DNA from: Eledone cirrhosa | Lineage: Eukaryota | Assembly (NCBI GenBank): GCA_964016885.1 | Contig: CAXHJY010000841.1 | Span: forward strand, 1 to 64,000 | Direction of reading: 5' to 3' | DNA: 64,000 nt | Part shown: one piece after another, positions 3,117 to 53,493 of the stretch | Layout of the letters: each line of letters opens with the position of its first letter | How positions within the stretch are numbered: the first letter of the stretch is position 1 | Program-made: the position numbers and the translations under genes | Notes under the pieces: generated by a model | Database searches by the model: none | Told to the model about the DNA's origin: nothing | Seen by the model: only the letters and a program-made list of their open reading frames with translations

Positions 3117-3318
3117 TAACGAAGGAAGTGTGGTAAGAAACCAGATGGACCATAACGCACCAGAGTACTCAATATTTAGGGTAGTAGAGTGGGTAATAGG
3201 AAAAAGTTTAACCACGACGGCAGAGCTCAAGCCGTTTGGACGGCTATTTCTGGACTGAAATAGTCCAGAATAGCCATTGAAACGGCTCGAGCTCTGCCGT
3301 CGGGGTTAAACTTTTTCA
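3117..3318. mobile_element. Fold-back family D element in (TA)n
   Basis: ~55-bp arm hairpin (ACGGCAGAGCTCAAGCCGTT...AACGGCTCGAGCTCTGCCGT) plus ~85-bp unique tail; TA repeats on both sides. Confidence 0.85.
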
Positions 3319-3408
3319 TATATATATATATATATAGTTCACGGAAACAAAGAGAGGTACAAAAAGTCTTATTAGTTTCACGCTGAATATGGAAAAGGGG
3401 AAAGAAAG

Positions 3409-3442
3409 TTCGACATGTCGGGCTTTAGCTCTTCTTCAGGAG
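3409..3442 (-). ncRNA. Degenerate minimal hammerhead ribozyme
   Basis: Minus strand: CTC-CTGAAGA-A-GAGC TAAA GCCC-GAC ATGTC-GAA; GAAA box shortened by 2 nt. Confidence 0.45.
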
Positions 3443-4798
3443 TACAAACATAGTCAAGATCACAAAGAATAGATGCAGAAAACATAGGTTGTCCAAGTAC
3501 AGTAAAACATAAGAAAGCAAGATAAACCGTAGTCTTGATAACGACTTTGGAACGCAAAGTGAAGTGTGTGTGTATTAGTGTCGATCTTATATGTGAATGT
3601 AAGTGTGTATATATATATATATATATATATATATATATATATATATATATATATATATATATGTGTGTATATATATATATATATACATATATGTATATAT
3701 ATATATATATATATATATATATACATATATGTATATATATATATATACATACATATATGTATATATATATATACATATATGTATATATATACATATATAT
3801 GTATATATATATTATGTATATATATATATATATGTATATATATATTATATATATGTATATATATGTATGTATATATATGTATGGATGTATATATATATAT
3901 ATACATATATATATACATATATACATATATATATATACATATATATATATACACACATACATATATTTAAATATATATATACAAACATATATATATATAC
4001 ATATATATATATATATATACATATATATATATACATATATATATATAAATATATATATACAAACATATATACATATATATATATACACATATATATATAC
4101 ATATATATACATATATATATATATATATACATACATATACATACATATATATATGCGTGTATGTGTTTGTATGATAATTGTTAGAAATATTCACCAAAAA
4201 TGTATTATTAAAAGATGTTTAAAAGCATGGAGAATAATGCAAAAAGTATTTCAAAGGCAAACATTAAAAGCACATCAAAATTTATTTCCATTTGTAATAT
4301 AATACAATGAGCCTATATATTATATTGTGTTGGCGTTTATGATTTCATTTTGGTGATGTTTTCTTTCATGGCGTAGTTCATTCCCCTTGATGAACATCAC
4401 TAGAGAAAATTTTACGATCTTCATAACTATTTCTCTATCATCTCTCTCTCTATATATATATATAGAGAGAGATAGAGATAGATAGATATAAATTAATAAA
4501 AACAATGAATAAAAACAAAGAACAAGTTCCTTATATTAAAAAAATTCATCATTTTACGATCGTTTCTAGGATATATATGTGTGTTGGTATGTATATCATA
4601 TAGATGTATGTAAAAATATTACAAACTCTCAGAGGAAATATACATACATTGAGTTCTTCATACGGATTGGACACTACCGTATATTTTGGTAGATTTATCT
4701 ACATATATGTATATATATATAAATATAAATAAATAAATAAACAGACTAAATAAAGATGGCGTAGGCATACAATACAACGGGAGGAAACATAATAGCAC

Positions 4799-4836
4799 CA
4801 CTGACGATGTTACAGATGTGCAACGAAAGAACTTTG
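4799..4836 (+). ncRNA. Candidate hammerhead ribozyme (weak stem I)
   Basis: CA-CTGACGA-T-GTTACA GATG TGCAAC-GAAAG AA CTT-TG. Confidence 0.4.
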
Positions 4837-5177
4837 TTAGACTATATATATGTGTTTGTGTCTATATTGTATCTGTATTTTTGACCGTTGGTCAGTTAAT
4901 GGCAACATTGAGGACCGAATAAATTAAATTAACCGATATAAAAGTCACAGAAGCGAAAACCAACCAACAGTGAGTGTGTTCTGTTATTAATTCTGGCAAT
5001 ATTATTACACAAATATGACCCTCCCCATATATATATATATCGATTTATATATATATGTGTGTGTGTGTGTAGAGGTTATATTTAATTTGTTGGGATTCAA
5101 CAAGCTTAAACATTTTTATAACTGATATAAAGCACTCAATATGAGTGTGTCAATATTTATTTATGAAACAAATATGG

Positions 5178-5241
5178 ATTTTATCTGATGAAAGCGCACC
5201 ATAATTTGCCTTGGTTGCCCTTGAAATATGTATAATAAAAT
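5178..5241 (+). ncRNA. Type-I hammerhead ribozyme, family H1
   Basis: ATTTTAT-CTGATGA-AAG.GCACCA..TGGT.TGC.CTT-GAAAT ATGT ATA-ATAAAAT; 7-bp stem I, AUA triplet. Confidence 0.75.
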
Positions 5242-6485
5242 AAATATGGTTTAATAAATATAGTTTCCATTTATTAATATATTGTGTATATATATATATA
5301 TATATATATATATATATATATATATATATATATATATATATATATACATACATCTGCGCGCACACGCACACACACATACACACACATGTATAGAAACTCT
5401 AAAAGATTTGATAACAAATATGTTTACACACACACACATACTTATATATAAGGTTATTGTTGTATTTTGCCTATTTTTCTGGCCTATCGATTTCCTATCA
5501 ATTTATCTACCTATTGGTATTATTGGTTTTATGCACCAACCTCACCACACACACATACACACGCACACACACACACACGAGCGCGCGCGCGCGCACAAAC
5601 ATAGATATATATATAGCAAAAGTAACAAATATATGTAACTCAACTTTATGTTGAGAATTATATCTGATAGCTTATATATGGAAATATATATAAATATAAA
5701 TATACATATATATATATATACGTATCATTATACGTATATATATATATATATATATATATATATATATATATATATATATATATATATATATATATATATA
5801 TATATATACATATATATATACGTATATATATATATATATATATATACATATATACGTATATATATATATACATATATACGTATATATATATATATATATA
5901 TATATGTATATAATATATATATATATATATATATATACATATATACGTATATATATATATGTATATAGAGATATATTTACGTATATATATGTATATATTA
6001 TAATATATATATATATATATATATATATATATATACACGTATATATATCTATCTATATATATATATATATATATATATATATATATACATATATATACGT
6101 ATAATTATATGTATATATATATATACGTATAATTATATGTAGATATATATATATATATATATATATATATATATATATATATATATACGGTCGCATTTAC
6201 ATAGGTTTATGTGTGAATATCTGTGTTTATTGCGAATATCTGTGTTTATTGCCAAACTATTGCTCGTGGTGTAGAACGCTTTTATGATGTAATGTAGAGA
6301 ACGATAACAATAAATGAGTAGTTCCCTCCTACCCTCCCCCACCACCACAACCATCATCAGCACCGCTATCATCATATAGATCGTAACACCTCAACAATTA
6401 GCACGAACATCACCATCATTATCGTCACCATCATCACCAACACCACAATCACCATCACCATAATAATCAACACCAGTAATATCCC

Positions 6486-50581: not shown

Positions 50582-50847
50582 ACATATAAATAAATTAAGA
50601 TAAAGCCTAACATCTTGTTTCGTCTGATTTCTTTGTTCGTCCATTACGCATTGTCGTGGTTTTCAAACTATATATATGTATATATATATATATATATACA
50701 TAGTAATAATAATAAATTAGACTAAAATCCAAAGAGGGCTCGATAAGGATAAATATATATCAAATATATAAGGGGGTCATATATATATGTGTGTGTGTGT
50801 GACACACACACACACACACACATATATATATATATATATATATATAT

Positions 50848-51152
50848 ATGACCCCCTTCGAACCCGAGTGACCAACGGATTTGCACCTAGAAAGGTTGCC
50901 CTCCAAGGCACAAGTCCGGGCAAGGTTGTTTGTGGAAGACCAGCAGTCACCCATGCATACCACTCGCTTCTCTCCATGCCTCTAATGTTGTCCAAGTAAA
51001 GACAATGGCTGATACAGCTTGGCACAAGTGACGTCGGAACTCATTTTTACAGCTCAGTAAACTGGAGCAGCGTGAAATAAAATGTCTTGCTCAAGAACAC
51101 AACGCGGTCACGTTTATAAGCTCAACGCTCTAACCACTAAGCTATGGGACTT
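50848..51152 (-). mobile_element. SINE family C copy
   Basis: Homologous to 20575-20865. Confidence 0.8.
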
Positions 51153-51176
51153 CACATATATATGTATATACATATG

Positions 51177-51287
51177 GAGCTCAGCCGACGGGGTGGTGAT
51201 TATTTTCCTATTACCCACTCTACTACCCCAAGTATCGAGTACTCTGGTGCGTTATGGTCCACCTGGTTCTTTACCACACTTCCTTCG
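51177..51287. mobile_element. Family D element, one arm only
   Basis: GAGCTCAGCCG..TTTTCCTATTACCCACTCTACTACC...CTTCG. Confidence 0.8.
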
Positions 51288-52307
51288 AGATATATATGTG
51301 TGTGTGTGTGTGTGTGTGTGTGTGTGTGTGTGTGTGTGTGTGTGTGTGTGTGTGTGTGTGTGTGTGTGTGTGTGTGTGTGTGTGTGTGTGTGTGTGTGTG
51401 TGTGTGTGTGTGTGTGTGTGTGTGTGTGTGTGTATGTGTGTGTGTGTAAAGAGAGGGAGAGAGAGAGAGAGAAAGAAAGAGAGACAAGGAGAGAGAGAGA
51501 GAAGACAGAGAGTGAAAGAAAGGTGTGGATTCATTTGATGTTAGTGAGGTTAAATATTTTCACACTACGAAATTATACATTCAAATAATTTCATTCTGAA
51601 ATATCAAAATTTTTATTTATACAATGCAAAATAAACAAAATGTATGTGTGAATATATATGTGTAGGTGTGTTTGCGTCGATGAGTATGTGTGTATGTCTG
51701 TGTATGTGTGTACGCATCAGTTTTTAATTCCTGAGTAAATATGTAAATACCGTTTTTCATCAAACATTCTAAATGCCACGCATAAATTATACACACACAA
51801 AAAAAAATATATATATATATATATATATATATATATATATATATATATATATATATATATATACATAATATATACACACACGCATATATATATGTATGTA
51901 TCTATACGTATGTATCTATCTATCTGTCTATCTCTCTCTATATATATATGCCCTAGTGGCAAATAAAAGAAATATATCTCTCTCTATATATATATATATG
52001 TTTGTATGTGTGTGTGTATGTATATATATATATATATATATGTTTGAATGTGTGTGTATATATATATATATATATATATATATATATACACACACACATA
52101 TATATATATATATATACATATATATATGTATATACATATATGTATGTATATACATATATATGTATATACATATATATATATATATATATATATATATACA
52201 CACATATATATATACATATATATATATGTATGTATATACATATATATATATATGTATATACATATATATATATGTGTGTTTGTATGTATATATATATATA
52301 TATATAA

Positions 52308-52893
52308 TGGTAACATGTATCCCAGTACAACCTGTATCATGGTCGGGTCGTTGGCGACTAAACTGGCAGCCCCACCAAGCTTTCTTGGTGAGGAGGGTGA
52401 CTTTGGACATCCTACAGGACTAAAAACAAAACCTGTCAAAGGGCAAAGGAGCTCTTAAGAGTCAATGGCCATCCAAAATCAGCGGGAGAGATGACCCCTT
52501 AGCCTTTGTCAAGGCAGAATTCTAGGAGAAGGAAAACTCTGATATAACACCAGCAACCCTGATGGTATCCAATGATGTTGACTTGTTCTTCTTTTTGGTA
52601 AATATCATCTTGGTTAAGAGAGTGGGACTGGCTTTGTGCAGTGCCTTTGCTCACTATAAAAGCTTCACGGCACAGGCATTGCTTTATATCTGGAGATCTC
52701 TCTGCACTTGTCGTCACATGGTACCATGGGCCCAGCACTATGTGTCAATAATTGTCACAAGTGTAGTGTTTGTACCAGAGTTTTCAAGTCGCTGGCTGGA
52801 CTAAAAAGTCACACTCGTTCAGCGCATCGGTAGAGGTTCTCCTACATGGATATAAAGTAGTGGCCGTACTCGAAAACGAGTTGGCAGCCACCA
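52308..52893 (+). mobile_element. Longest repeat family B copy
   Basis: Extends ~130 bp further 5' than 34985; bounded by TA repeats. Confidence 0.8.
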
Positions 52894-53152
52894 TATATAA
52901 TGGTATAGAGAGAATGAAGCCACCACCACTCCAACTCCACCACCACCACACCACAACCAAAACACCAACTCCACCACCACCATAGCATCTCCATCACATC
53001 TTCACCAGCACCACCATTACGACATCAGCACCATCATCCTATATACCTCCACCACCGTTATATCGGCACTTCTACCACCAGATCAACAACACCATCATAT
53101 ATATATATATATATATATATATATATATATATATATATATATATATATATAT

Positions 53153-53493
53153 AAAACAAAGGAATTGTGATAAGGAACCAAATGGACCATAACGCACCAG
53201 AGTACTCAATACTTAGGGTAGTAGAGTGGGAAATAGGAAAAAGTATGACCCCGACGGCAGAGCTCAAGCCGTTTCGACGGCTATTTCTGGACGCTCTTCT
53301 TTCTTTAACAGTCTAGGATCTTTTTACTGATTCTCCCTATGTCTGACTTCGTTGGGTTTATAAGCCTAATGGATGGTTTGCGGTCGAAGTCGGATTTGTG
53401 GTCCTACAGTGTGAAGTAGGGAGTCCGTGGCTCAGTCCAGAAATAGCCGTCGAAAGGGCTTGAGCTCTGCCGTCGGGGTCATACTTTTTCCTA
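53153..53493. mobile_element. Fold-back family D element with a 142-nt loop
   Basis: Arms end at 53292 and resume at 53435. Confidence 0.9.

Follow-up and report, generated by a model that had tools for sequence, protein, structure and literature searches.

Insertions of Penelope-like retroelements (PLEs) often carry an inverted, 5′-truncated copy of the element at their 5′ end and a tail of 30–40 base pairs (bp) at one end (PMC8557442, PMC3846280), and Penelope-13_HM, a member of the Hydra clade, is annotated with such a copy (PMC8557442, supplement). The origin of these insertions is unsettled: a self-priming fold-back was proposed for the inverted junctions in 2013 (PMC3846280), whereas in 2024 a PLE protein was reported to cut and extend both target strands in vitro and to start reverse transcription at two internal sites of the RNA, the sequence between the two starts being the tail (PMC11167929). 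Here we analyse family D, a set of eight short hairpin-plus-tail repeats in 64,000 nucleotides (nt) of Eledone cirrhosa DNA (contig CAXHJY010000841.1, positions 1 to 64,000, assembly GCA_964016885.1; hereafter the window). We conclude, with a probability of about 0.7, that family D consists of high-copy, dead, 5′-truncated insertions (3′-end stubs) of an endonuclease-positive Hydra-clade PLE, formed by priming at two internal RNA sites as set out below.

The Hydra clade is diagnosed in PMC8557442 by an RWK motif, a change of DKG to DKT, a C-terminal GIY-YIG endonuclease behind a CxCX5C linker and the lack of an N-terminal endonuclease; its members insert into (TA)n and carry canonical hammerhead ribozymes in the 3′ untranslated region (UTR). 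Hammerheads of PLEs have a palindromic loop 3, motif pairs on opposite strands and high variability (PMC4209133), and PLEs make up 6.83% of an octopus assembly, in 190 families (PMC13282606). Family D resembles the published Hydra elements (PMC8557442; Penelope-13_HM, Hydra-1_Obim) in its insertion into (TA)n and in the type of its reverse transcriptase (RT; RWK-like, with DKT in the nearest relative), and in the inverted 5′-truncated copy noted for Penelope-13_HM; its candidate half-hammerhead may correspond to their hammerhead in the sense 3′ UTR near the end. It differs in that its copies are stubs of ~200 nt and in its stem III, which has 5–6 bp and a loop of 7–9 nt instead of 3–4 bp and 1–3 nt. 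The inverted pseudo-long terminal repeat (pLTR) plus tail of PLEs (Arkhipova et al. 2013, PMC3846280; Craig et al. 2021) shares with family D the head-to-head copy, the tail at one end, the 5′ truncation and the microhomology joins; in family D, however, the tail is 77–80 nt rather than 30–40, and no target-site duplication is discernible in (TA)n. The inverted-plus-tail pattern is thus already known for PLEs.

Two further systems are close. PAc, the Poseidon element of Anolis (Frangieh et al. 2024, PMC11167929), shares the two RT starts that define a tail, the cutting and extension of both strands and the AT-rich target; it belongs to another clade, its behaviour was seen in vitro whereas ours is deduced from junctions, and its sites are more closely spaced than those of family D. 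Animal non-LTR retrozymes (bioRxiv 10.64898/2026.07.22.740005) are likewise short, PLE-derived and hammerhead-related. They are tandem monomers with hammerheads, whereas family D is dispersed, head to head and devoid of the 5′ core, and thus differs from a retrozyme.

Architecture and abundance of family D

Family D copies were located by blastn on the masked window, and all eight that had been named by an earlier reading of the bare sequence (the sequence-only reading) are present. Read in the arm-then-tail orientation, a complete unit comprises (TA)n, an inverted arm, a centre, a sense arm, a tail and (TA)n. The copies and the features discussed below are as follows.

3119..3320, minus strand: copy 3117; inverted arm 3263–3320, centre ~4 nt, sense arm 3197–3256, tail 3119–3196
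9226..9336, plus strand: copy 9226; inverted arm 9226–9239 (14 nt), sense arm 9239–9258 (20 nt), tail 9259–9336; subfamily of 30131
14623..14795, minus strand: copy 14621; inverted arm 14738–14795 (full), sense arm 14701–14738 with a 14-nt deletion, tail 14623–14700
23938..24129, minus strand: copy 23936; inverted arm ~24090–24129, ~40-nt spacer, sense arm 23989–24049, cut tail
30131..30330, plus strand: copy 30131; inverted arm 30131–30190, sense arm 30193–30252, tail 30253–30330
30211..30242, plus strand: candidate type I hammerhead, 3′ half only; GAAA at 30211, GUC ending at 30233, 5′ core absent
30259..30286, plus strand: bulged stem-loop in the tail of 30131; R-CUC-stem...stem-2-nt bulge-GAG-Y-RC, candidate cis element flanked by the two putative priming sites
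42007..42198, minus strand: copy 42005; inverted arm 42139–42198, sense arm 42085–42139, tail 42007–42084
51177..51287, plus strand: copy 51177; plain 5′-truncated stub with sense arm 51177–51210 and tail, without an inverted arm
53154..53493, minus strand: copy 53153; inverted arm 53434–53493, 141-nt spacer, sense arm 53234–53292, tail 53154–53233
53293..53310, minus strand: 18-nt filler unique to copy 53153, as judged from read depth
53311..53430, minus strand: RT fragment in copy 53153, sense orientation, 40 codons with one stop

The sequence-only reading had described these repeats as almost all bounded by (TA)n and as each consisting of an ~85-nt tail and an ~55–60-bp hairpin whose short arm, in complete copies, stops at one point, a picture that needs several corrections. 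A (TA)n or degenerate AT run lies on both flanks of seven copies, 23936 having a short TA run on one side only, within a window that is itself AT-rich (13–39% GC per 2-kb bin) and abundant in microsatellites. A hairpin of 55–60 bp occurs in just four copies (3117, 30131, 42005 and 53153) and not in 14621, 9226, 51177 or 23936. An inverted arm is present in seven of the eight, and its start is identical (..CCTA) in all of these except 23936, where it starts elsewhere. The tail, shorter than had been thought, measures 77–80 nt (single values 78, 78, 78, 77 and 80) in the five copies resolved by script; 9226 gave no match, and 23936 and 51177 were left out. Two ends, 78 nt apart, are fixed, while the hairpin centre is different in each of the window copies: it spans 0–4 nt where the hairpin is tight, but ~40 nt in 23936 and 141 nt in 53153. 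The copies also differ in apparent age: 3117 looks oldest, with 6 unmirrored substitutions over 58 sites, and 30131 looks young, its arms being identical across 59 sites; 23936 belongs to a diverged subfamily (about 70%) that retains GAAAC and stem III.

Sequencing reads show the same two ends. Six loose ends are listed for run X10, and the two with most reads pass into (TA)n, one at 53155 (tail end, 7038 reads) and the other at 53233 (arm end, 3522 reads); a variant (TA)n end at 53166 has 715 reads in this run. Family D collects 21754 of the 12.47 million X10 reads, a density that, under random sampling, would correspond to about one copy in 150 kb; restriction-site-associated DNA sequencing (RAD-seq), however, does not sample at random. 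The family is also present, at low depth, in two other organisms (runs X5 and X7).

The probable parent element and its candidate hammerhead

The spacer of copy 53153 ties family D to a coding element. Translated in the sense of arm and tail, its 40 codons, with one stop, match the protein P0002 at 83% (E 1e-11), and all three candidates passed in the protein comparison of this fragment. P0002 is an RT with RWR, DKT and YRDD motifs and no N-terminal endonuclease, which bears out the suggestion of the sequence-only reading that a Penelope-type parent was worth seeking. Ten longer sequences, taken from the best 150 matches among P0002 relatives, were aligned: a GIY-YIG-like C-terminal region is found in all ten, and the CxCX5C linker in eight, the other two having a longer spacing; the relatives have RWK or RWR and, for the most part, DKT. 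P0002 stops before the CxCX5C/GIY-YIG region, and the endonuclease evidence is that of the ten aligned relatives; the RWK and DKT motifs are likewise read by proxy, from P0002 and its relatives, the window fragment not spanning them.

Two other traits point the same way. Insertion into (TA)n, characteristic of the Hydra clade, is seen in seven of the eight copies and in the two largest X10 loose ends, and the inverted 5′-truncated copy with a tail at one end, a trait of endonuclease-positive PLEs, in the seven copies with an inverted arm. The PLE-type RT is linked to family D through copy 53153. Taken together, the parent is very probably a PLE and, with somewhat less assurance, a member of the Hydra clade; on the evidence of copy 53153, the RT piece and the arm are likely to derive from the same element. 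The Naiad clade, considered as an alternative parent, has an N-terminal endonuclease, DKA and no canonical hammerhead, whereas in the closest RT the motif is DKT and the N-terminal endonuclease is missing; this clade was dropped.

Copy 53153 records a template switch that captured the RT fragment, because loose ends of run X5 carry the RT frame on beyond either edge of this piece (read by eye) and the 18 nt that join it to the arm have almost no depth: at 53297–53308 the depth is ~0 in three runs and 27.5 in X1, against ~10^4 on the RT piece there. Tail and arm exceed the RT piece in depth by ~157 times in X10 and ~246 times in X1.

Family D is probably uncatalogued. By eye, the RT stretch of Hydra-1_Obim differs from the 53153 fragment, so family D is not that listed octopus family, and four 14-nt family D words have no exact match in the PMC8557442 supplement, in which line breaks could hide one. 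Related-locus scans and a plasmid search returned no relative. The tail pattern has no matches in GTDB or viral contigs; the arm pattern has none in viral contigs and two in metagenomes, both 23-nt chance hits in bacterial DNA of 71% GC. A Pfam search of P0001, P0002 and P0003 gave no match, and placement of P0002 in the Atlas, taken as a lead, puts it among eukaryotic RT/helix-turn-helix (HTH) clusters. At E ≤ 1, the 150 Rfam matches listed out of 506 are all below the gathering score and nearly all microRNA-family noise on simple repeats, with no hammerhead among them.

Two side observations concern related RT sequences. A decayed PLE-type RT relic, split by a (CA)n tract, lies at 58058–58626 and has weak tblastn matches to P0002 (E 0.03 and 0.2). 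Within residues 1–43 of P0002, the stretch STHIEYF precedes the conserved start and resembles SSIEYF, which the family D tail encodes in one reading frame; this stretch may have arisen by translation of an upstream copy of that tail motif.

The sense arm of family D carries GAAAC, a 5–6-bp stem III around a palindromic GAGCTC loop, a GUC triplet and a variable stem I strand, an arrangement that places GAAAC in hammerhead register, as the sequence-only reading had it. In 30131 the candidate half-hammerhead comprises a 6-bp stem III, the palindromic loop and the stem I 3′ strand, and 23936 keeps this geometry. Among 2,000 arm shuffles, 19 reach a 5-bp stem III and 7 reach 6 bp; the half-hammerhead pattern is common, with ~60 matches in the window. 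The sequence-only reading went further, suggesting a GAGCTC-CTGANGA-GACGGC ancestor whose CUGANGA box may have been overwritten by the fold-back. GAGCTC is instead the palindromic loop of the putative stem III, downstream of GAAAC, and the 5′ half of the ribozyme would be lost simply by 5′ truncation; a search of the window with two patterns for a CTGANGA-bearing relative gave no match. In an overlap of a loose-end consensus with a joint insert, read by eye, the complement of the stem II strand stands ~30 nt upstream of the arm, and therefore the core would lie beyond the 30 letters shown. The window holds five complete hammerheads, one of which, at 29900 in another family, has a loop II of >50 nt. 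It is plausible that the family D arm is a truncated hammerhead, a candidate defined here by its sequence pattern.

Origin of the hairpin

The hairpin is built at insertion and not carried as a unit, because its centre differs from copy to copy while two ends 78 nt apart stay fixed. The sequence-only reading had counted the hairpin as part of the mobile unit; this is not supported, since the centre varies throughout the window copies and across at least 15 joints of reads and contigs (96 distinct centre joints reported, 15 of them listed), and a second priming site is the better interpretation of the constant arm end.

The arms carry a record of their source. In pairwise alignments with the 53153 sense arm as reference, 12 substitutions across five copies are mirrored between the arms, in agreement with the sequence-only reading, and 15 are not, 7 of which are CpG-type (mirrored/unmirrored: 3117, 2/6; 14621, 1/2; 30131, 6/0; 42005, 1/4; 53153, 0/1; and 9226, 2/2, where the alignment is ambiguous at an indel). 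Pairing each arm with its own partner in the five long copies gives 10 variants in common, the best of the 120 possible pairings, and no copy joins arms of two subfamilies (0/6). The mirrored variants of 30131 had been taken as specific to that copy. They are subfamily variants, since they are common to 9226, which is of the same variant type and has an identical tail (0/80 differences), and frequent in X10, where the markers at 53240 and 53246 are found in 7827/10241 and 3387/10483 first-mate-plus reads. The single mirrored changes of 3117, 14621 and 42005 are absent among the read variants listed (58 further rows lie outside that list), and may be rarer. Both arms thus take the sequence of one source lineage at insertion, as had been proposed, and then decay separately; because the arms drift apart after insertion, neither the compensatory evolution nor the hairpin-directed conversion of the sequence-only reading is needed.

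The likeliest explanation is that two target nicks prime cDNA at two internal sites of the RNA. The GIY-YIG endonuclease of the element would nick both strands of a (TA)n tract, as the insertion sites and the published in vitro work suggest. The two DNA 3′ ends would then prime reverse transcription at two fixed internal RNA sites 78 nt apart, which correspond to the two observed ends, each priming presumably using 2–3 nt of TA microhomology. The first cDNA would comprise tail and arm, and the second the arm only; both would usually halt ~60 nt upstream of the second site, probably within the long stem II-loop of the 3′-UTR hammerhead. The two cDNAs would be joined head to head with the 0–4 nt of overlap or filler seen at the junctions, or else following a template switch of the kind that left the RT piece in copy 53153. 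With both arms made from one RNA or one source locus, subfamily variants would be mirrored and would then decay independently. The bulged stem-loop in the tail is a candidate protein-binding signal in this scheme. In the twin priming of LINE-1, both target strands prime cDNA on one RNA, which gives a 5′ inversion; family D differs in that its second site has a constant position and in that its arm is, as a rule, present in duplicate rather than simply inverted.

Dual priming is favoured because the second end is fixed despite seven other TA sites in the tail. It is favoured over a fold-back by a second hairpin-plus-tail family of the window, with CTGATGA hammerhead cores (24137–24588, 5069–5285 and 6685–6906; the 24137 family), because in two of its copies, 5069 and 6685, the inverted arm has no sense counterpart. 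These two copies, which look like products of twin priming, show inversion without duplication: their inverted arms of 130–150 nt begin at about the same point, and just part of the tail is left on the sense side. One X10 joint of family D (53242 to 53446, 76 reads) argues likewise, because it combines a long inverted arm with a short sense arm.

The alternative that survives best, although we consider it unlikely, keeps the same Hydra-type parent and lets the inverted arm be self-primed, a truncated first cDNA or its template folding back and being copied to the fixed second end. This is the route proposed in 2013 for the inverted pLTR junctions (PMC3846280), from which our reading of family D departs. 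It would suit the tight centres (0–4 nt) of four copies, the palindromic centre of 30131, whose arms are identical down to a mirrored CpG-type change, and the lack of any copy that mixes subfamilies. It leaves the fixed second end unexplained among the other TA sites, and it cannot yield the inverted arms without a sense partner (5069, 6685 and the X10 joint) unless these suffered later deletions.

We regard it as very improbable that family D is a non-autonomous hairpin element spread from a small number of master hairpins, whose transcripts the PLE machinery would insert as complete units. The excess of stubs over RT-bearing sequence (>150-fold) and the termination of most long copies within a few bases of one point would fit. 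However, each window copy has its own centre, and the read and contig joints are as diverse; 9226 and 30131, of one subfamily, differ in arm length; and X5 and X7 loose ends concur on one upstream continuation of the arm, which the mixed X1 consensus resembles. Homogenisation of the arms after insertion by hairpin- or cruciform-directed conversion, which would mirror private mutations, has hardly any probability in our view: the 12 mirrored variants exist, but the 15 unmirrored ones remain, including 6 over 58 sites in 3117, and the variants of the best-marked copy are common across the read population. A TA-targeting DNA element of Helitron type or a miniature inverted-repeat transposable element (MITE), with inverted repeats at or near the termini, can practically be discounted, since family D, though short, non-coding, TA-flanked and furnished with inverted repeats, lacks the MITE set of terminal inverted repeats, constant interior and target-site duplication (one of the repeats ends 78 nt within the unit, the length of the centre ranges between 0 and 141 nt and one copy has no inverted arm), and one copy holds RT sequence while the sense arm has hammerhead geometry.

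Several points weigh against dual priming in a Hydra-clade parent. The missing sense arms, and the X10 joint, could be explained by later deletion; within family D the inverted arm is the longer one by only ~1–5 nt in the long copies, and dual priming is argued mostly from the neighbouring family; and the tail has 78 nt against the published 30–40. No full-length parent, which in PLEs would form pLTRs by partial tandem arrangement, was found in the related-locus scans or with the tail pattern in GTDB and viral contigs. The tie of arm and tail to the RT comes from the single chimeric copy 53153, whose RT piece possibly derives from the RNA of another Hydra family. As for the ribozyme, stem III shows covariation in 0 pairs and is 79.6% paired, against 82.8% in shuffles, and CUGANGA occurs in none of the eight copies, none of which has a complete hammerhead. 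Finally, the ten-arm tree, with 0/6 branches supported at 60 columns, does not reject a single clade of inverted arms (p-AU 0.327), so that the left-versus-right arm tree put forward by the sequence-only reading does not discriminate.

The tail stem-loop and neighbouring repeats

A descriptor of the bulged stem-loop finds nine full matches and one relaxed match in the window, all in the tails of hairpin units: seven family D copies (in 3117 the partner strand lies at a distance) and the families 24137, 24769 and 29718. Block shuffles (n = 40) give a mean of 0.05 matches. Nine aligned segments show 92.9% pairing, and in 2 of the pairs both sides have changed (9/500 shuffles as high); the descriptor was derived from these same sequences, so that its shuffle and pairing figures give no independent support. 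By eye, three of the six Hydra consensus sequences in the PMC8557442 supplement show the motif cleanly (at the 3′ end of Hydra-2_Amil and Hydra-2_Ajap, and twice in the 5′ leader of Hydra-1_Ajap); in two it is approximate, and in Hydra-1_Obim it was not seen. The stem is closed by G-C in these sequences and by A-U in the window families. An exact-word search of the same supplement for the tail motif gave 22 matches, 19 of which are unrelated coding sequence. The stem-loop seems, on these sequence comparisons, to be common to this group of elements, and its occurrence in Hydra consensus sequences also ties the tail to that clade without recourse to the RT piece. We found no description of it in the openly searchable literature, in which little of the search was aimed at stem-loops and from which subscription papers, Repbase and Dfam fall outside. 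Tails of four other hairpin-plus-tail families in the window were measured, and are 75–84 nt in three and 42 nt in the fourth; those of family D and of the first three neighbours are about twice the published length (30–40).

We tentatively suggest, while holding the whole chain somewhat doubtful, that Hydra-clade PLEs carry an apparently undescribed conserved tail stem-loop that docks the RT-endonuclease and sets two priming sites ~78 nt apart, so that both nicks prime one RNA and the RTs stall in the stem II-loop of the hammerhead, leaving 200-nt hairpin stubs in large numbers.

Other units of this kind stand nearby. A 313-nt hairpin with a 78-nt tail at 29716–30110 bears a complete hammerhead on both arms (29900, plus strand; 29848, minus strand) and directly abuts copy 30131 across one TA tract. 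At 49592–49952, a hairpin with a 42-nt tail has a complete hammerhead at 49760, and its inverted arm ends inside the hammerhead core. A 284-nt hairpin at 24709–25052 has a bulged stem-loop with a long loop in its tail, and at 60194–60413 a 142-nt hairpin with an ~75-nt tail, in which neither a hammerhead nor the tail motif was found, is flanked by TA runs. Plain 3′-end stubs ending in TA runs (8195–8343, 23765–23913, 45290–45401 and 11183–11270) probably represent further PLE families; complete hammerheads occur among them at 8313 (minus strand) and 11183 (plus strand).

The remaining repeats are of other kinds. A dispersed repeat of 120–200 nt, 80–95% alike (1–135, 26816–27200, 34415–34717, 37448–37594, 40777–40973, 56095–56288 and 61968–62181), is presumably akin to short interspersed nuclear elements (SINE-like), and a 214-nt inverted pair, 90% alike, flanks a SINE-like piece at 13112–13786. 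A repeat of 430–460 nt has three copies 89–98% alike (34984–35445, 41532–41959 and 52439–52899) and older relatives at 26344–26635 and 27581–27795. A tandem array of 99-nt units at 42572–43267 has an open frame, which we take to resemble the C-terminal part of a non-LTR retrotransposon RT.

Stubs of this kind are easily mis-filed as MITEs or microRNA-like hairpins. Family D, being abundant, short and rich in markers, could decide the origin of inverted-plus-tail PLE insertions computationally. If the proposed route is true, each stub fits one read pair with subfamily markers on both arms, and the family would be a natural assay of PLE inverted-repeat formation that separates dual priming from self-priming, and one RNA from two. 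The tail stem-loop, if confirmed, would offer a cis signal open to testing and, at the DNA level, a marker of Hydra-clade stubs devoid of any open reading frame.

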